Shown in pieces: positions 15,240 through 40,408 of a stretch of DNA of 42,771 bases (position 1 is the stretch's first letter; each line of letters begins with the position of its first letter). The notes below the pieces were generated by a model. That model was not told where the DNA came from. It did not search any database and saw only the letters and a list, made by a program, of their open reading frames with translations. The stretch comes from Minisyncoccota bacterium (lineage in GTDB: Bacteria > Patescibacteriota > Minisyncoccia > UBA6257 > GWB1-50-10). The position numbers and the translations under genes were made by a program. The stretch spans positions 6,442 through 49,212 of the forward strand of contig JBBDIH010000034.1 in NCBI GenBank assembly GCA_040880505.1, read 5' to 3'.

Positions 15240-15313
15240 TGGTGCGGGATAGGAGAATCGAACTCCTGTCTACTGCTTGGAAGGCAGTCATTCTACCACT
15301 AAACTAATCCCGC
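15240..15313 (-). tRNA. tRNA-Gly (anticodon TCC), CCA encoded
   Basis: GCGGGATTAGTTTAGTGGTAGAATGACTGCCTTCCAAGCAGTAGACAGGAGTTCGATTCTCCTATCCCGCACCA: 74 nt, acceptor stem GCGGGAT/ATCCCGC, anticodon arm ACTGC-CTTCCAA-GCAGT, T-loop GTTCGATT. Confidence 0.97.
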
Positions 15314-15404
15314 GAAATCTAACAAAGTATAACTCCCACAATCTTATTCTTACATAACATTAGACCAAAAAAACAATCATTATTCAAACTTTTAATTATT
15401 AAAA

Positions 15405-15432
15405 AGGAGCTAAGAAATTAATCCTAGCTCCT
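15405..15432 (-). terminator. Intrinsic terminator after the ATP-grasp gene
   Basis: 8-bp stem aggagcta/tagctcct followed by a T run on the minus strand, 10 nt past the stop codon. Confidence 0.65.
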
Positions 15433-15441
15433 GTAACCATG

Positions 15442-16473
15442 TTAATTAGGGTTAATAAGAAGGTCAGCAATAGACTCGGAAATTCTAGATTTCAAATTAG
15501 GTAACCAACGACCAATCCAAAACCAATCACCGCTTGAATTTATTTCAAGAAAAATGAAATTTCCTTTCTTGTCTTTGATGATGTCTATACATCCAAAGCT
15601 TAATCCAAAAGAATGCGTAAGTTTTATACATTTATCTTTTAATTCTTCTGGAAGTTTAAACTCTGAACAAATAATCTCATCATCGTTTTTGATTGCTCTC
15701 CAATCATCATTTACTAGCTTGTTAGATGTTTTTTGACCATCAATCGCACAACAAAAAGCATTATTACCTACTACAGTAACTCGAAGCTCTACTTCTTTTT
15801 CTACGTATTCCTGATAGGTAGCCGGCGATAAGCTAATACTTTCCTGTTCTTTTTCAAGTTCTTTTAGAGTAAAGGACTTTGTAAAAGTTCGATATATGAA
15901 ATCTTTACCTTTTTCTTCCTGAAAAAACCCACCAATCATAATAGGCTTAACAGCAATCTTGGTGATTTCATTGTCTCTTGCCCATTCCATTAGCTCATTA
16001 AAACTACTGGTAAAAATAGTAGTTGGTATAGAAAATCCTATTTTTTTTGCTAAAGAAAGTTGCCAAGGCTTACGAGAAGCACCAACAACGCTATCAATAG
16101 GATTTAAGATAAATATTTCCTTAGAAAATAAGTTCTGGCTTCCATAAACAAATTCTACGTAATCTTTTATTATGTACATAGCTTCGTTATCAGATAAACC
16201 ATATTCACTAATAAGTGTTTTTTTATTACAGTTTATACTTCTAAGCCATACTGACTTTATTTCCTTTAGTAAATATTTAATTTTATTTTCCTCAGAAAAA
16301 TTATAGCTAATTCTTGATTCATGATTAGAATGCATAATTCCAATTTCAGGAAAATTAAAAGGCAAAGTGGTGTCAACTAAAAGAACTTCAGAGCCTTTAC
16401 TTTCTATAAAACTAATTACTTCATGAGCACCTTTGTCGTCATCACTAGTAAAAATAAGAATTTGATCTTTCAT
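15442..16473 (-). CDS. MvdC/MvdD-type ATP-grasp ligase (graspetide/omega-ester peptide maturase)
   Basis: N-terminal ILIFTSDDD..A.EV, VWLR, KPWQLSLAKKIGFSIPTTIFTS, AVKPI, YQEYVEKEVELRVTVVG, DWR, FGLSFGCIDII, FLEINSSGDWFWI: hallmark motifs of RiPP ATP-grasp maturases rather than generic RimK. GGAG RBS upstream. Confidence 0.88.
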   Translation of the reverse strand: MKDQILIFTSDDDKGAHEVISFIESKGSEVLLVDTTLPFNFPEIGIMHSNHESRISYNFSEENKIKYLLKEIKSVWLRSINCNKKTLISEYGLSDNEAMYIIKDYVEFVYGSQNLFSKEIFILNPIDSVVGASRKPWQLSLAKKIGFSIPTTIFTSSFNELMEWARDNEITKIAVKPIMIGGFFQEEKGKDFIYRTFTKSFTLKELEKEQESISLSPATYQEYVEKEVELRVTVVGNNAFCCAIDGQKTSNKLVNDDWRAIKNDDEIICSEFKLPEELKDKCIKLTHSFGLSFGCIDIIKDKKGNFIFLEINSSGDWFWIGRWLPNLKSRISESIADLLINPN

Positions 16474-16560
16474 ATTATTATCTCCATATATTAAAATTTG
16501 TTAAAGATCTTTTTAAATGATACTATAAATTATAATCAAACAATTTAGTAAAAAAGTCAA

Positions 16561-17214
16561 ATGAACACAGGCAAAAAGAGAAAGGTAAGAGAATTAATAG
16601 AAAATAAAAATTTTAACAAAGCCATAGAACTTTTAGAGGAAATATTAGAGAAAAATCCGAATGACACGGATGCTTTATATAATCTAGGATTTGCTTATGA
16701 TCATAAAGCAAAAAATGATGAAGATAGGGAGAAATTTTATCCTAAAGCTGAAGAAGCATATAAAAAAGCCTTGAAGGTAAATCCGAAACTTGAAAAATGT
16801 CTTGGTGGATTAGGAATGTTGATGTGGTATAAAGCTAGACATGCGTCTAAAAATAATAAAAAAGATGAATATCTTAAAGAATCATCAAATTACCTAGAAA
16901 AAGCATACAAAATAAATGAAAATCATAATCTACTTCCGATAATTGCTAATATAAAATTTGAAAAAGGTGAAACTGAAGAAGGTGAAAAGTATCTACTAAG
17001 AGCCGAGAAAATACTTGAGGATCCATTTTCTGTTTATGTTAATGGAGCTTTTAGGTTAGTAGAAGTAGGTCAAAATGAAAAAGCTAAAAAATACGCTAAA
17101 AAAGCCTTGAAAAATGCTAATAACCATTGGGATATGGAATCGAAAATAGTAAAGGAATATATTACAAAACTAGAAGAAATATCTAAAAATGGGAAATTAA
17201 AAAGGAGAAGTTAA
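16561..17214 (+). CDS. Tetratricopeptide-repeat protein
   Basis: NFNKAIELLEEILEKNPNDTDALYNLG, AEEAYKKALKVNPK...CLGGLG, YLEKAYKIN: repeated TPR consensus. Confidence 0.85.
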   Translation: MNTGKKRKVRELIENKNFNKAIELLEEILEKNPNDTDALYNLGFAYDHKAKNDEDREKFYPKAEEAYKKALKVNPKLEKCLGGLGMLMWYKARHASKNNKKDEYLKESSNYLEKAYKINENHNLLPIIANIKFEKGETEEGEKYLLRAEKILEDPFSVYVNGAFRLVEVGQNEKAKKYAKKALKNANNHWDMESKIVKEYITKLEEISKNGKLKRRS

Positions 17215-17229
17215 AATAACTTCTCCTTT
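17201..17229. terminator. Bidirectional terminator between the convergent TPR and precursor genes
   Basis: Perfect 13-bp stem aaaggagaagtta-aaa-taacttctccttt. Confidence 0.75.
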
Positions 17230-17248
17230 AGTTTAAATTTTCTTTGAA

Positions 17249-17410
17249 TCAACGAGTATTGGTAGGATACTCTTCGTTCTCAGCTGTTAAGCGAGACATC
17301 TTAGACGCTTCTGAAGCATCTCTTTTTTCCAAAAGTTTAAGAAGAATAGGTCTCTTCTTTGTATTGTTAACAACTTTGGCCTGGTCTTCCTTCTTTGCTA
17401 AAGTTTCCAT
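17249..17410 (-). CDS. Putative graspetide precursor peptide (53 aa; not in ORF track)
   Basis: METLAKKEDQAKVVNNTKKRPILLKLLEKRDASEASKMSRLTAENEEYPTNTR. Leader-like KKRPILLKLLEK resembles the PFFxxFLE recognition motif; C-terminal S/K/S/T donors precede E44/E46/E47 acceptors; AAGGT RBS upstream. Confidence 0.72.
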   Translation of the reverse strand: METLAKKEDQAKVVNNTKKRPILLKLLEKRDASEASKMSRLTAENEEYPTNTR

Positions 17411-17468
17411 GATTATTACCTTATGATTTTTGATTTAAGATTATGGTTATGTAAAAGAGCTTATTTAA

Positions 17469-17497
17469 AAAATAAACCTATAGATAAAGTTTGTCAA
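17469..17497 (-). promoter_or_regulatory. Putative sigma70 promoter of the precursor gene
   Basis: Minus strand TTGACA (17497-17492), 17-nt spacer, TATTTT (17474-17469); about 58 nt upstream of ATG 17410. Confidence 0.6.
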
Positions 17498-17563
17498 AGT
17501 AAGATGCAAAAGTATTTTCCTTACATAGATAAATTTTGAATAAAAATTCTTGTTTAACCAAAA

Positions 17564-17589
17564 TTTATACTGTAACGTTACAGTATAAA
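17564..17589. promoter_or_regulatory. Perfect 26-bp palindrome (candidate operator)
   Basis: tttatactgtaac|gttacagtataaa with no spacer, in the divergent intergenic region. Confidence 0.5.
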
Positions 17590-17610
17590 GTCTGATAAAA
17601 TAAGACTTGA

Positions 17611-17636
17611 CGAAACAATTTAGCTTTTAAAACGTT
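17611..17636 (+). promoter_or_regulatory. Putative autoregulatory ECF promoter
   Basis: CGAAAC (17611-17616), 16 nt, CGTT (17633-17636), resembling the TGAAAC-N16-CGTA/T promoters of B. subtilis SigW/SigM-type ECFs; ends 7 nt before the sigma ATG. Confidence 0.5.
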
Positions 17637-17643
17637 TTATATT

Positions 17644-18195
17644 ATGAGTAAGGACAAAAAGTTAGTCAAAAAGGCTCAAAAGGGTGATTCTAATGCCTTT
17701 GGAAAACTATACGATAAATATATAGACAGAATATACCGTTATATCTTCATTAGAGTTAGTAACAAAACAGAAGCAGAAGATGTAACACAACAAGTTTTTC
17801 TAAAAGCTTGGAAAAATATAAACAGATACGAAACTCAAAAAAATACCCCCTTCTCTAGTTGGTTATACACAATAGCTAAAAATTCCATAATAGATTATTA
17901 CAGAAAAGACAGAGATCATTTAGATATAGATTTTGTCTCAGATAAAATCTCTACATCAGAAAAACACCAAGAAGAAAAAACTGACACAGAACTAAGAATA
18001 GAATTAGTAAAAAACCAACTAAACAGGCTCTCCGAAGATGAACAAGATGTATTAATAATGAGATTCATTGATGAAATGTCTAATAAAGAAGTTGCTAAAA
18101 TAACAGGTAAAACAAGTGGAGCTGTTAGAGTAATGCAACACAGAGCTTTAAAAAAACTAAAGAAACAGATTAAGAAACAATATCATGATGGATAA
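17644..18195 (+). CDS. ECF (group 4) RNA polymerase sigma factor
   Basis: AQKGDSNAFGKLYDKY...IYRYI, AEDVTQQVFLKAW, FSSWLYTIAKN...D; region 4 L...EQDVLIMRF..EMS.KEVA...GK..GAVRV..HRAL.KL. Confidence 0.95.
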   Translation: MSKDKKLVKKAQKGDSNAFGKLYDKYIDRIYRYIFIRVSNKTEAEDVTQQVFLKAWKNINRYETQKNTPFSSWLYTIAKNSIIDYYRKDRDHLDIDFVSDKISTSEKHQEEKTDTELRIELVKNQLNRLSEDEQDVLIMRFIDEMSNKEVAKITGKTSGAVRVMQHRALKKLKKQIKKQYHDG

Positions 18196-28189: not shown

Positions 28190-29209
28190 GTAATAGAAAT
28201 TAACTCTAATTACTTATATTATATAGTATAAGATGAAAATAGCAGTTCTACATAGCTTTTTAGATCAGCTTGGTGGTGCAGAAAAAGTAGCTTTGACGCT
28301 AGCAAAAGAACTTAAAGCTGATCTTATAACAACAAACTTTAATCAAAAAGATATAAGCAATTTTGGGTTTGAGTCTATAAATATAAAATCTTTAGGTAAT
28401 GTTTCTAAAAAATGGCCTAAAAGGCAGCAACAAGCGTTAAATTTATTTAAAAAAAATAAATTTAATAATTATGATCTCTTAATAATAACAAGCGAATGGT
28501 CAATATCTTCAGTAAACAAAAAACAACCTGTGATTTGGTATGTAAATTCTGTACCAGAAATATCAAATAATTATTCAGAAAAACTATTAAAAGAAATAAA
28601 TAAATATACGAATAAAATTAACTTTATAATAGCTAATTCTAATAAAACGCAAAGACAAATAACTAGATACTTTAAAAAAGATTCTATTTTAATTTATTCA
28701 TGTAATAGAAATTAACTCTAATTACTTATATTATATAGTATAAGATGAAAATAGCAGTTCTACATAGCTTTTTAGATCAGCTTGGTGGTGCAGAAAAAGT
28801 AGCTTTGACGCTAGCAAAAGAACTTAAAGCTGATCTTATAACAACAAACTTTAATCAAAAAGATATAAGCAATTTTGGGTTTGAGTCTATAAATATAAAA
28901 TCTTTAGGTAATGTTTCTAAAAAATGGCCTAAAAGGCAGCAACAAGCGTTAAATTTATTTAAAAAAAATAAATTTAATAATTATGATCTCTTAATAATAA
29001 CAAGCGAATGGTCAATATCTTCAGTAAACAAAAAACAACCTGTGATTTGGTATGTAAATTCTGTACCAGAAATATCAAATAATTATTCAGAAAAACTATT
29101 AAAAGAAATAAATAAATATACGAATAAAATTAACTTTATAATAGCTAATTCTAATAAAACGCAAAGACAAATAACTAGATACTTTAAAAAAGATTCTATT
29201 TTAATTTAT
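28176..29209 (+). repeat. Tandem direct duplication, period 512 bp
   Basis: 28176-28697 repeats at 28688-29209; the 10-mer TTTAATTTAT occurs at 28176, 28688 and 29200; encoded peptides are identical over 156 aa. Confidence 0.92.
28233..28715 (+). pseudogene. Truncated duplicate of the GT4 gene at 28745 (N-terminal domain only)
   Basis: Identical to the first 156 aa of the 28745..29761 protein, then SCNRN-stop read from the duplicated intergenic DNA. Confidence 0.85.
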
Positions 29210-29761
29210 CCTCCTGTAGAAATTGATAAATTTCAGTTTAAAAAATTTGGTGACTACTGGCTTTCAGTAAATCGTCTTGATTATTACAAAAGAATAGATC
29301 TTCAAATTAAAACTTTTTCAGAAATACCTAATGAAAAACTTATGATAGTAGGGTCGCCTAAGTCAGATATTAATACAATGAATTACTTTTCGAAAATAAA
29401 ACAATTATCTCCTAAAAATATTACATTTCTAGGAGAAAAAAACGGAAAAGAGCTTATTAATCTATATGCAAATTGCAAAGGATTCATTGCTACAGCAAAA
29501 AATGAATTTTTTGGCATAACTCCTGTAGAAGCGATGGCATCAGGAAAACCAGTTGTTGCTGTTAATGAAGGAGGTTACAAAGAAACCGTAGATATAAAAA
29601 CAGGCATCTTAACAGATCCTACAAGCCATTCTTTAGCAAAAGCAATTAAAGAAGTTTCTCTTAATTTAGAAAATTATAAAGAAAATTGCATAGATAAATC
29701 TAGGAATTTTTCCAAGGAAAAGTTTATGGAACATATGAATAAAATAATTAAAAAATTTTAA
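28745..29761 (+). CDS. Glycosyltransferase family 4 (GT-B)
   Basis: GGAEKV, IANS, IYPPVE, LSVNRL...KR, FLG, EFFGITPVEAMASGKPV. Confidence 0.92.
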   Translation: MKIAVLHSFLDQLGGAEKVALTLAKELKADLITTNFNQKDISNFGFESINIKSLGNVSKKWPKRQQQALNLFKKNKFNNYDLLIITSEWSISSVNKKQPVIWYVNSVPEISNNYSEKLLKEINKYTNKINFIIANSNKTQRQITRYFKKDSILIYPPVEIDKFQFKKFGDYWLSVNRLDYYKRIDLQIKTFSEIPNEKLMIVGSPKSDINTMNYFSKIKQLSPKNITFLGEKNGKELINLYANCKGFIATAKNEFFGITPVEAMASGKPVVAVNEGGYKETVDIKTGILTDPTSHSLAKAIKEVSLNLENYKENCIDKSRNFSKEKFMEHMNKIIKKF

Positions 29762-33963: not shown

Positions 33964-36151
33964 GCAATATGAAACTATTATATTAATCCCAACATTTAAT
34001 GAATGGGATGTATTAGAAGCGTGTTTACAATCTTTACAGAAACAAACATATAATAATTTCAAAATTATTGTTATAAATGATGGTTCTGAAGATCAGATAG
34101 AAAAAAAAATTAATAATAATTTTAATAATGTTGACACCTTTACTCTTGATAAAAACCAAGGTTTTGCAAAAGCAGTAAATAAAGGTATTAAATATACTCT
34201 ATCTCAATACTCTCCACATTATATTGCTCTACTTAATAATGATACTATCGTTGAAAAAGAATGGTTACAATCACTTACGAAGAAAATTAAAAAAGAAAAG
34301 AATACTGCTGCTGTTACATCAAACATGTTCTTTTATAGTAATCGAAATACTATAAACAGCCAAGGCGGAACAATTGACTGGAATGGAGATGGTTACGATA
34401 TAAACATATTTAAAGATAAAGATAGTGGGTACCAAGATAGCCAACAAGTCTTTGGTGCCTGTTTTGGGGCTTGCTTAATGGATATAAAAGCTATTAAAGA
34501 TATTGAATTATTAGATGAAAGATTCTATGCATATTATGAGGATGTTGATTGGAGCTGGAGAGCTAATCTATACGGATACAAAATATTTTTTGAAAAAGAT
34601 GCTTTTGTTTATCATCACAAAAGTAAAAGTTGGAAACAAGGAAATAGAAAATTAACTTATCTCACAAAGAGAAATTGTCTAACAAGTGCTTTAAAAAATT
34701 ACCAATTAAAAAATCTTTTACCTCAAATATCTAAAATATTTATTGGTTACTTATTATTCACTCTTGATTACTTATTTTTTCAATATAATCTTCCAAAAAA
34801 AATAAGTTTGTGGCAACGAATAAAATATATAACAGTACCCTTACAAGCTATTTATTGGAACTTAATTAATCTACCGAAAACTTTATATTTAAGAAATAAA
34901 ATACAGAATAAAAGGGTTGTAAAAGATAAAAAAATATTTGAACTTTTAGAACAAGATGAAACACCACTTCATAATTTCTTATCTTCAATAAAAAACAAAT
35001 TATCTTTTAATTATCTTTATTCAAAAATAATATCTATTTTTCATACGCCAAAAAATACTTTTGGTGTAAACATACTAGGCTATATTGATGCTCAAAGCGG
35101 AGTTGGTGAAGCTGCTAGATCTCTTATAAGAGCAGTAAAAGAAGCTAATATTCCTTATGCTTTAAACAATGAAACAACTAGCCCATCAGAAAGAGATGAT
35201 ACAAAATATAATAAAGAATTTAAAAATTATAACCCCTACCCTATCAATATCATTGTTATTAATGGTGATACCTTTAAAAATGTATTAAGGAATCGTAGTA
35301 ATTTATATACAAAAGATAAATATAATATCGCCTATTGGGCTTGGGAATTAGAAGATATACCAAAGAAATGGATACCTCTTATAAATATAGTTGATGAAAT
35401 ATGGGTTCCTTCTAGCTTTGTTAAAAATGCTTTTGAAAAACATACCAAAAAACCTATTACAATCATTCCTCACTCAATTAATATAAAGAGATCATTTTTT
35501 AACAGAAAATACTTCTCTATCAGTAATGATAAATTTGTATTCTTATATATCTTTGATTTCTACAGTCACTTTGAAAGAAAAAATCCTTTAGCTTTAGTTA
35601 ATGCTTTTAAAAAATCTTTTGAAAATAATGAAAGTGTTAAATTAATAATTAAATGTTCAAATAGTCAATCAGATCAGGAAAATTTTAAAAAAATAAAAAA
35701 CGAGACTGAACAAAATAAAAATATAGAAATAATAGATAAATACCTAACAAGAAAAGAAATATTATCACTAATAAATATCTGTAACGCATATGTATCCCCT
35801 CACCGATCAGAAGGATTTGGATTAACTATTGCTGAAGCTATGAGCTTAGGAAAACCAGTTATAGCAACAAATTATTCAGGAAATACTGATTTTATGAATG
35901 AAGATAATAGTTTTCCCGTTGATTATAAACTCATAGAACTAAAAAAAGATTATGGTCCTTACAAAAAAGGAAATGCTTGGGCAGATATTAATATTAACAA
36001 ATTATCTAAATATATGAAGTATTTATATGAAAATCCAAAACAAATTAAAAATGTATCAGAAAATGCGATAAAAACTATTAATTCTCTTCTTTCTCCTAAA
36101 GCTATTTCAAAAAAAATATCAGAAAGATTAAATATTATTTATAAAAAATAA
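33947..36151 (+). CDS. Bifunctional GT2 + GT4 glycosyltransferase
   Basis: N-terminal GT2 (IPTFN, NDGS, N.GFA.A.N, LLNND, EDVD..WR); C-terminal GT-B (GVGEAAR, W.WEL, DE.WVPS, FERKNP, SPHRSEGFGL.IAEAM). Confidence 0.9.
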   Translation: MQTKNKQYETIILIPTFNEWDVLEACLQSLQKQTYNNFKIIVINDGSEDQIEKKINNNFNNVDTFTLDKNQGFAKAVNKGIKYTLSQYSPHYIALLNNDTIVEKEWLQSLTKKIKKEKNTAAVTSNMFFYSNRNTINSQGGTIDWNGDGYDINIFKDKDSGYQDSQQVFGACFGACLMDIKAIKDIELLDERFYAYYEDVDWSWRANLYGYKIFFEKDAFVYHHKSKSWKQGNRKLTYLTKRNCLTSALKNYQLKNLLPQISKIFIGYLLFTLDYLFFQYNLPKKISLWQRIKYITVPLQAIYWNLINLPKTLYLRNKIQNKRVVKDKKIFELLEQDETPLHNFLSSIKNKLSFNYLYSKIISIFHTPKNTFGVNILGYIDAQSGVGEAARSLIRAVKEANIPYALNNETTSPSERDDTKYNKEFKNYNPYPINIIVINGDTFKNVLRNRSNLYTKDKYNIAYWAWELEDIPKKWIPLINIVDEIWVPSSFVKNAFEKHTKKPITIIPHSINIKRSFFNRKYFSISNDKFVFLYIFDFYSHFERKNPLALVNAFKKSFENNESVKLIIKCSNSQSDQENFKKIKNETEQNKNIEIIDKYLTRKEILSLINICNAYVSPHRSEGFGLTIAEAMSLGKPVIATNYSGNTDFMNEDNSFPVDYKLIELKKDYGPYKKGNAWADININKLSKYMKYLYENPKQIKNVSENAIKTINSLLSPKAISKKISERLNIIYKK

Positions 36152-39226: not shown

Positions 39227-40408
39227 ATGAAACTTTTAAAGTTCATTCCCTTTGTAATAATCCTCTTGTCAGTTTTTCTGATAAGTTGTGAGAACCCAGT
39301 CGTGCCTGAAGAGCCTCCAGTAAAATGTGAGGTTATGATTGAAACTGAAAATTTTGAAATTGAAGTGGGTAGCTCAATTGAAGTTACCGCTAATGTTTCT
39401 TCTTTAGATGGTTCTAATTGTGAAAACAAAGTAATCTGGAAAACTAGTAATAACTTGGTTTCTCTAGAAAATATAAGTAACAACTCTGTTACTGTAAAAA
39501 CTTTGTTTGACGGATCTACTACTGTTTATGCTCAAAGCGTTGATGATTCTTTAGCTACTGCTAAGTCTGTTATAAAAATTACTTTTTCTCCTGTTATGGT
39601 TTACTGGAATAGTACTGGATTAAATTCTGGTCTTTCTTTAATTAATAAAACCGGACAGATAAAAAAGCTTATAGACTATATAAGTAAAGATCATAAACCT
39701 AACTGGTTACCTGATGGAGATAAAATTTCCTTCTTAAGTACCAGGGGAACAGGTTCAACAAATATCTTTACTGTAAATCTAGACGGTAGCGAGATAAAAA
39801 ACATCACTCCTAATGTAAGCACTATCATCTCTCATGACTGGTCACCTGATGGTAATTTATTAGTTACTACTTTAAAACCAGAGGAAAGAGATCCTTTTGA
39901 GATATACACCCTGAATACATCGAATAATGAGCTGAAAAGACTCACATTCGAAGGAGTAATAAACGGTAAAGTTCCATCTGGAGTAGCTTGGTCACCTGAT
40001 GGTAGTAAAATATTATTTTCTACCGCTCGTGACAGCAACTGGGAAATTTACAGTATGAATCCTGATGGCTCTAACCAAGTAAATCTTACACAATCACCAG
40101 AATCAAGTGAATTTTCTTCTGTGATTTCATCAATTGAAGAAAAGATATTTTATATATCTGACAAAGGTGGTTCGCATAATATTTACAGCATGAACTTAGA
40201 TGGTTCGAATGAAATGAAAATATCCAATTTTTCAAACGGATACAAAATCTTTGATCTTGATTTATCTAGCGATGGATCAAAAATTGCATTTGCAAAAATG
40301 CATCAAGATGGCGGACCAATGGAAATATGGACGATTGATATTAATAGTTCTGAACAAGAATTATTAGTAAATACAGGTTCCTCAAGGTATCCAAAGTGGA
40401 AACCTTAA
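39227..40408 (+). CDS. Lipoprotein with Ig-like domain and TolB-like (PD40) beta-propeller
   Basis: GGAGG RBS; lipobox LISC; Ig-like segment (V.WKTSN..V); repeats P.W.PDG..I.F, WSPDG, EIY.MN.DG, P.W.P. Confidence 0.85.
   Translation: MKLLKFIPFVIILLSVFLISCENPVVPEEPPVKCEVMIETENFEIEVGSSIEVTANVSSLDGSNCENKVIWKTSNNLVSLENISNNSVTVKTLFDGSTTVYAQSVDDSLATAKSVIKITFSPVMVYWNSTGLNSGLSLINKTGQIKKLIDYISKDHKPNWLPDGDKISFLSTRGTGSTNIFTVNLDGSEIKNITPNVSTIISHDWSPDGNLLVTTLKPEERDPFEIYTLNTSNNELKRLTFEGVINGKVPSGVAWSPDGSKILFSTARDSNWEIYSMNPDGSNQVNLTQSPESSEFSSVISSIEEKIFYISDKGGSHNIYSMNLDGSNEMKISNFSNGYKIFDLDLSSDGSKIAFAKMHQDGGPMEIWTIDINSSEQELLVNTGSSRYPKWKP

Follow-up and report, generated by a model that had tools for sequence, protein, structure and literature searches.

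Does a 53-codon open reading frame (ORF) in the genome of a Minisyncoccota bacterium encode the precursor of a graspetide, an ATP-grasp RiPP, and, if it does, which of its side chains become joined? In graspetide biosynthesis, the leader of the precursor binds and activates a ligase, a carboxylate is phosphorylated with ATP, and subsequent attack by Ser, Thr, or Lys yields an ester or an amide (bioRxiv 10.1101/2021.03.09.434688; PMC8939145). The ORF lies in a stretch of 42,771 nucleotides, which was analysed as a whole and is called the window here, and the source genome is small, AT-rich, and CPR-like (1.36 Mb in 315 contigs; its relatives have 0.5-0.9 Mb). We put the probability at about 0.85 that the ORF is a genuine graspetide precursor; in the reading that we prefer, a leader-guided, MvdD-like ligase would esterify its residues S39 and T42 onto E46 and E47.

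The ORF begins with ATG, occupies 17249..17410 on the minus strand, and translates into METLAKKEDQAKVVNNTKKRPILLKLLEKRDASEASKMSRLTAENEEYPTNTR, exactly the 53 residues quoted in an earlier note on this DNA. The same note called the gene unannotated, which is right for the ORF track that its reader had before it and is limited to that track, because public assemblies (NCBI and Logan) already include a gene call for this exact product. Two Logan runs contain a near-identical strain; with 1 nt of difference over 5 kb, it brings no evolutionary information. As DNA, the locus is present in runs SRR27977662 and SRR27977663. When the 429-bp intergenic stretch was shuffled by dinucleotides, 100 of 2000 shuffles (5%) contained a complete ORF that starts with ATG and has 53 aa or more, and therefore the bare ORF is only weakly above chance and is weak evidence by itself. 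The other small ORFs around the ligase gene carry neither leader nor core, and the source genome has one ligase and one such peptide only.

The expression signals reported in the earlier note (a promoter-like site, an AAGGT box, and a 13-bp hairpin) were all located. The first, TTGACA-N17-TATTTT at 17497..17469 on the minus strand, is a consensus match upstream of the peptide gene; since such matches are not enriched in this stretch of 28% GC (18 observed, 15.1 +/- 4.1 expected in shuffles), it proves nothing alone. The AAGGT box (17422..17418, minus strand) resembles a Shine-Dalgarno (SD) sequence and ends 7 nt 5' of the ATG. Just 3 of the 38 genes in the window have an SD-like box, and the ligase and the precursor genes are among them. 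The hairpin (17201..17229) is a putative bidirectional intrinsic terminator between the convergent 3' ends of the peptide gene and the gene of a tetratricopeptide-repeat (TPR) protein, with an RNA fold of -15.9 kcal/mol (z = -4.56). The ligase gene has a promoter-like TTAACA-N16-GATAAT upstream (16477..16504, minus strand; a consensus match only) and a terminator-like 11-bp hairpin at its 3' side (15405..15432, minus strand). An Rfam scan of the locus returned no RNA family except a tRNA.

With regard to translation in the window more generally, the three SD-like boxes lie within 25 nt of the starts of the ligase gene, the precursor gene, and the gene at 39227, and many gene starts directly follow TATAAT-like sequences. 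The sequence suggests that initiation in the source genome is SD-poor and perhaps often leaderless.

Two further genes complete what we call the cassette. The ligase gene (15442..16473, minus strand; 343 aa) is on the strand of the peptide gene, 776 bp apart from it, and the two do not form one operon. Its product is an MvdD/MdnC-like ATP-grasp graspetide ligase according to NCBIfam, Pfam, and structure-sequence matches. The MvdD, SAV_5884, and MvdC maturase models of NCBIfam match it with E values from 1.6e-48 to 1.3e-38 (MvdD TIGR04184, 1.6e-48; TIGR04187, 2.1e-43); in NCBIfam and Pfam alike, its score falls short of the curated cut-off for each named maturase model. By Pfam, it consists of a pre-ATP-grasp domain (MvdD; PF21068, 1.2e-4) and a RimK domain. 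Its alignment with MdnC (5IG9; E 5.5e-30) spans the full length, and it matches CdnC, AMdnB, MdnB, and PsnB as well and retains the invariant residues of ATP-grasp enzymes in an alignment of 13 sequences. Between the ligase and the peptide genes, on the plus strand at 16561..17214, lies the gene of the TPR protein (217 aa; Pfam TPR families). It is homologous to the TPR neighbours of six other loci with such ligases (L022, L023, L033, L069, L080, and L021). Its AlphaFold2 model (pLDDT 94) has 11 helices that form a five-repeat TPR superhelix, with generic TPR scaffolds as the best structural matches, and holds no catalytic or other domain. Judging from this model, the TPR protein is probably a peptide- or protein-binding partner. 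None of the three cassette genes encodes a protease or an exporter, and a full-text search found no publication that joins graspetides with tetratricopeptide proteins.

We then asked whether the peptide itself is conserved. Among 401 genomes of the order, a search with the peptide gave a sole match of note (E 0.006 per genome), in a genome of a different family (G141), while the other matches (E 0.02-0.18) lay inside long ORFs and were noise. The match is 30 bp from the gene of the orthologous TPR protein, and the layout of the locus is that of the window, with a ligase (42% identical), a TPR gene on the opposite strand (41% identical product), and a convergent small gene. Read from a GTG codon, which we infer to be the start, the G141 peptide is (M)ETTTLASPKEKLEDGLKKVVQVKPRQVGKPLLLKRVRKERPERGVQMSKMTQWNEEQPT; an in-frame ATG further upstream is an unlikely start because it overlaps the -10 element of a TTGACT-N17-TATAAT promoter. 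The two peptides align with a BLASTP E value of 7e-8 and 41-46% identity, and their Smith-Waterman score of 73, compared with 25.6 +/- 4.9 for shuffled sequences, was reached in none of 5000 shuffles. The earlier note had staked its reading beforehand on peptide-level conservation in related loci, and this is what G141 supplies.

The residues that are invariant in both peptides are M1-E-T, P21, L23, L24, K25, M38, S39, T42, N45, E46, E47, P49, and T50. They make up two common motifs at equal spacing, [KR]-P-[IL]-L-L-K in the leader and M-S-x-x-T-x-x-N-E-E-x-P-T in the core, and the leader Pro is 18 residues from the core Ser in the window as well as in G141. Codons of the conserved S, T, E, P, and T differ synonymously between the two genes, which points to selection on the protein. 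Between the two genomes, HisRS is 45% and RNase Y 58% identical, so that the conservation of the peptide is similar to that of a housekeeping enzyme, HisRS; 'conserved' here denotes one pairwise comparison because the lineage has two members only. The signals around the G141 gene are similarly arranged: TTGACT-N17-TATAAT lies upstream at a distance comparable to that in the window, AAAGGA precedes the GTG start, and a GC-rich hairpin with a T-run (-18.6 kcal/mol) stands at the equivalent position after the gene. The 5' leaders of the two genes, when compared, had no likeness.

These data bear directly on the idea that the ORF is a chance reading frame in AT-rich intergenic DNA that gives no product. 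Such a reading would agree with the 5% of shuffles that produced an ORF of this length and with the background frequency of promoter-like matches. However, a peptide-level ortholog stands beside an orthologous TPR gene even though housekeeping proteins of the two genomes are just 45-58% identical, the changes at conserved residues are synonymous, and the RBS and the terminator are equally placed in both loci. With the G141 ortholog, the 53-aa ORF is thus far more than chance, and we consider a product-less ORF highly improbable. A second view accepts the peptide as a conserved small protein but takes it to work with the TPR protein, as a ligand, regulator, or antitoxin-like factor, the true substrate of the ligase being encoded elsewhere or being the TPR protein itself. 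Short acidic C-terminal peptides are ligands of TPR domains, and it is the TPR gene, not the ligase gene, toward which the peptide gene converges and whose terminator it shares. Furthermore, Makarova et al. were left without assignable precursors for part of the CPR loci (PMC8939145). Against this view, a graspetide leader in the expected position and a C-terminal core with Ser/Thr and Glu-Glu are both kept in the ortholog, ligase and small gene occur together in 10 of 10 cassettes, and no alternative substrate ORF was seen near the ligase gene in a genome with one ligase and one such peptide. We therefore regard it as improbable that the peptide is a partner of the TPR protein and not a substrate of the ligase.

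The remaining alternative concerns chemistry and not identity. The peptide could be a genuine precursor with other cross-links, in which T50 or the non-conserved S33, S36, K37, or E44 takes part or in which a single ring forms. T50 is indeed conserved, connectivity cannot be read from motifs because the motifs of different groups overlap (PMC8939145), and S36 or K37 could participate in the source species alone. However, the ortholog has V, Q, and W in place of S36, K37, and E44, and the two conserved carboxylates cap the conserved rings at two. A different cross-linking pattern is accordingly possible but on the unlikely side. The reading of the ORF as a precursor esterified at S39 and T42 onto E46 and E47 is the one that we follow below.

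The leader of this precursor has its recognition motif, P21-I-L-L-K-L-L-E-K (17324..17350, minus strand), of the Phhx(1,2)h or PFFARFL type. The earlier note had likened it to PFFxxFLE, and the likeness is upheld by alignment: the motif is in register with P-F-x-x-R-F-A-E of eight cassettes (the named loci being L022, L023, L033, L069, L021, L043, and L088) and with P-L-L-L-K-R-V-R-K of G141, where its beginning reads K-P-L-L-L-K. The predicted core, M38-S39-R-L-T42-A-E-N45-E46-E47-Y-P49-T50 (17261..17299, minus strand), has 8 positions invariant between the window and G141. Among its donors and acceptors, S39, T42, T50, E46, and E47 are invariant in both members, so that S39, T42, E46, and E47, already named as core residues in the note, stand, while its extra donors S36 and K37 and its acceptor E44 find no support in the ortholog. 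Only two carboxylates are conserved, which limits conserved rings to two, and no Lys is conserved, so that no lactam is expected. After residue 31, the peptide of the window has no Asp. The claim of a single-core graspetide precursor adjoining an MvdD-like ATP-grasp ligase is thereby supported.

How common are such cassettes in CPR bacteria? A homolog of the ligase with 31-35% identity is present in 8 of 61 relatives, and ten CPR loci have the cassette: L022, L023, L033, L069, L043, L088, L080 (partial), L021, this window, and G141. The TPR gene converges with the small ORF and diverges from the ligase gene, except in L021, where all genes are co-directional. The small ORFs share P-[FIL]-h-x-[KR]-[FL]-[AL]-[EK]; leaders such as IPFPVRFAE, VPFLTRFAK, KPFIANFLE, APFMVRFAE, and KPFILQFRE are in register with KRPILLKLLEK of the window. 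The eight CPR precursors other than those of the window and G141 have this matching leader and different, Asp-rich cores, with C-termini that are acidic and Thr-rich. In other CPR ligase loci, a DUF6624 gene replaces the TPR gene or lies beside it, and the precursors are of the kind MVPFILHFLEK...SPTTTGTYDDID.

The lineage of the window is far rarer. A single-sequence ligase scan of genome contigs found nothing, and a metagenome scan returned the G141 contig again and nothing else. In a profile search of a collection of 5.8 billion proteins, two ligases scored 686-689 bits and the next match 160 bits, and when a peptide profile was run exhaustively with HMMER against 1.84 billion representatives, it gave only the two peptides and two low-complexity false matches. 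In the public collections searched, the ligase/peptide lineage has two members. A maximum-likelihood tree of 82 ligases gives the pair of window and G141 full support (100/100), on a stem of 1.37 substitutions per site. The nearest rows by path after G141 are L028, L029, and L032, although the tree does not fix where the pair attaches among the CPR clades. The genome of L028 is Parcubacteria GW2011_GWA2_40_143, which is listed under Branch_1 (Makarova et al., 2022; PMC8939145).

The genomic setting of the cassette also differs between relatives. In six genomes of the same family (L123-L128), RNase Y, HU, a 272-aa protein, an anti-sigma factor, and an ECF sigma factor are followed by tRNA-Gly(TCC), with the sigma gene and the tRNA gene on one strand and 70-360 bp apart. 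In the window (15240-17644), this gap is 2.33 kb and holds exactly the three cassette genes, and the tRNA-Gly(TCC) gene at the left flank (15240..15313, minus strand) is on the opposite strand; because the tRNA strand is reversed relative to the relatives, the event was not a simple insertion. At the right flank, some 60 bp from the ECF sigma gene on its upstream side, there is a perfect palindrome, ACTGTAACGTTACAGT (17569..17584, within 17565-17588). Its core, TGTAACGTTACA, recurs at the same position ahead of the sigma gene in relatives that have no cassette and is conserved there in G009, G003, G004, and G010, and the palindrome therefore belongs to the upstream region of the sigma gene and not to the cassette. 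From its sequence and position, it is likely an operator or promoter element of the sigma/anti-sigma operon.

In G141, the orthologous sigma region has no cassette and the cassette is found elsewhere, beside nitroreductase and histidine-kinase genes; the cassette is thus accessory and occupies non-orthologous sites. There, a 97-nt direct repeat of 84% identity (L108 5104-5200 and 8392-8488, on G141:C5) brackets the nitroreductase gene together with the cassette. These features suggest that the cassette may be mobile. In the window, no meaningful direct repeats flank the cassette, and the GC content across the locus marks no island.

Several observations at these sites are recorded here in their own right. 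The 97-nt element of G141 comprises the TTGACT-N17-TATAAT promoter and about 60 nt of 5' leader and has no Rfam match; one copy drives the precursor gene, and the second, 3.3 kb away, precedes an unrelated ORF of 225-255 aa. A 25-nt imperfect inverted repeat (80% complementary; 15368-15392 and 17531-17555) brackets the cassette of the window almost exactly but is probably due to chance, since 23 pairs of this kind, including this one, occur within 2.6 kb of the AT-rich DNA. In both genomes, an ortholog of HisRS (45%) is encoded on the contig of the cassette, 7-13 kb from it (34692-36023 in G141:C5; 1021-2331 in the window), despite the differing immediate flanks of the cassette, perhaps by residual synteny or by coincidence. 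Elsewhere in the window, the adjacent ORFs at 28233-28715 and 28745-29761 have the same first residues, about 155 in number (MKIAVLHSFLDQLGGAEKVALTLAKELKADLITTNF...), the first ORF being truncated at 160 aa, a pattern that suggests either the partial duplication in tandem of a glycosyltransferase gene or an artefact of assembly.

The following pathway is proposed. The leader helix around P21-I-L-L-K-L-L would bind the pre-ATP-grasp domain of the ligase and activate the enzyme, as PFFARFL does in MdnC. At the expense of ATP, the ligase would then convert the side-chain carboxylates of E46 and E47 into acyl phosphates, which the hydroxyls of T42 and S39 would attack to give two omega-ester rings in the S-x-x-T-x-x-N-E-E core. 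The rings may be nested, with T42-E46 inside S39-E47, or crossed; the assignment of donors to acceptors is a guess. By comparison with plesiocin (motif and mechanism in bioRxiv 10.1101/2021.03.09.434688), a small hairpin with two esters is the simplest prediction. The TPR protein, having no catalytic domain, would most likely bind the peptide or the ligase. Since the cassette has no protease or exporter gene, removal of the leader and export of the product would be carried out by genes outside it. Like characterised graspetides, the product may be a protease inhibitor.

Among the known systems, the closest resemblance is to the CPR ATP-grasp enzymes that Makarova et al. described as Branches 1 and 2 (Biol Direct 17:7, 2022; PMC8939145). 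According to that study, CPR precursors have a Phhx(1,2)h leader in the first 30 residues and cores that are mostly TxxxTx(6-10)Dx(1-4)D, with exceptions noted, and frequent neighbours in Branch 1 are a TPR gene ('cluster 5', of a role called 'unclear') and 'cluster 23', which is DUF6624 (PMC8939145). The window shares with Branch 1 the CPR host, a single MvdD-like ATP-grasp enzyme, a small precursor with a Phhx(1,2)h leader, the TPR neighbour, and a non-canonical cleavage site, and the nearest named ligases (those of Parcubacteria GW2011_GWA2_40_143 and of a Yanofskybacteria relative) are, or resemble, Branch_1 entries. In contrast to the Asp acceptors usual in Branch 1, the core of the window, S-x-x-T-x-x-N-E-E-x-P-T, has Glu acceptors; DUF6624 is absent from the locus and from the genome, and the ligase pair stands on its own long stem. 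The exact core and leader strings were not found in the parts searched of the supplements of Makarova 2022 (PMC8939145) and Carter 2026 (PMC13097080).

Membership in the established graspetide groups that we considered was rejected because of their core motifs. The ligase is homologous over its full length to those of microviridin (group 1; MdnA with MdnB/MdnC; 5IG9), P-I-L-L-K-L-L-E is in register with P-F-F-A-R-F-L-E, and ester formation via an acyl phosphate would be expected in both systems. However, the window has no TxKxPSDx(D/E)(D/E) core, one ligase and not two paralogous ones, no GNAT or ABC transporter gene, and no conserved Lys for a lactam, and it has the TPR gene in addition. With plesiocin (group 2; PsnA2/PsnB), it shares a single ligase and an order in which two neighbouring Glu acceptors come after two hydroxyl donors, but its core is single, with S-x2-T-x3-E-E spacing and a P-h-h leader, whereas plesiocin has four core repeats of T-T-x4-E-E (TTxxxxEE) and an LFIEDL leader, and PsnB is a weak match of the ligase (E 1.3e-5). 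The thuringinin core (group 3) is an extended Thr-rich segment followed by several Asp/Glu acceptors, TxxTxxTxxxExxDxD. Although the earlier note compared the core of the window with this type, only the S-x-x-T...E start agrees; S36 is not conserved, and there is no D-x-D downstream. Another parallel is found in rosaritide biosynthesis, in which the ligase is always accompanied by MirC, a non-catalytic PPIase-like partner (Carter et al., 2026; PMC13097080). MirC may offer a precedent for the TPR protein, as such a partner can be required for the stability or activity of a ligase, although MirC is PPIase-like and belongs to other phyla, whereas the partner in the window is a five-repeat TPR solenoid. 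The window locus matched none of the 43 RODEO groups in the portion searched of the supplements of the same study (PMC13097080).

The window locus is thus a rare new member of the graspetides with an unusual core, while a CPR system of ligase, precursor, and TPR protein has been predicted since 2022 and is not new. It is plausible that the locus represents a new graspetide group or ring topology. A more ambitious combination of claims, that the two-member lineage is a new graspetide group with a new ring pattern, that the TPR protein is an obligatory partner of the ligase, and that the three genes travel together as a cassette without a recombinase, is doubtful when taken jointly. If it were true, the S-x-x-T-x-x-N-E-E-x-P-T core would give two esters onto adjacent Glu residues with a conserved Pro-Thr tail, and dependence on the TPR protein would make this a second type of graspetide biosynthesis that needs a partner protein.

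The general picture of graspetides is unchanged by this locus. Despite their tiny genomes and small number of biosynthetic genes, CPR bacteria (Patescibacteria) retain three-gene peptide cassettes of this kind. The locus is a very small and well-delimited test case, consisting of a 53-aa precursor with clear candidate ring residues, one ligase, and one TPR protein, and it could settle both the role of the recurrent TPR partner, 'unclear' in the literature since 2022, and the use of the peptide to an episymbiotic bacterium.
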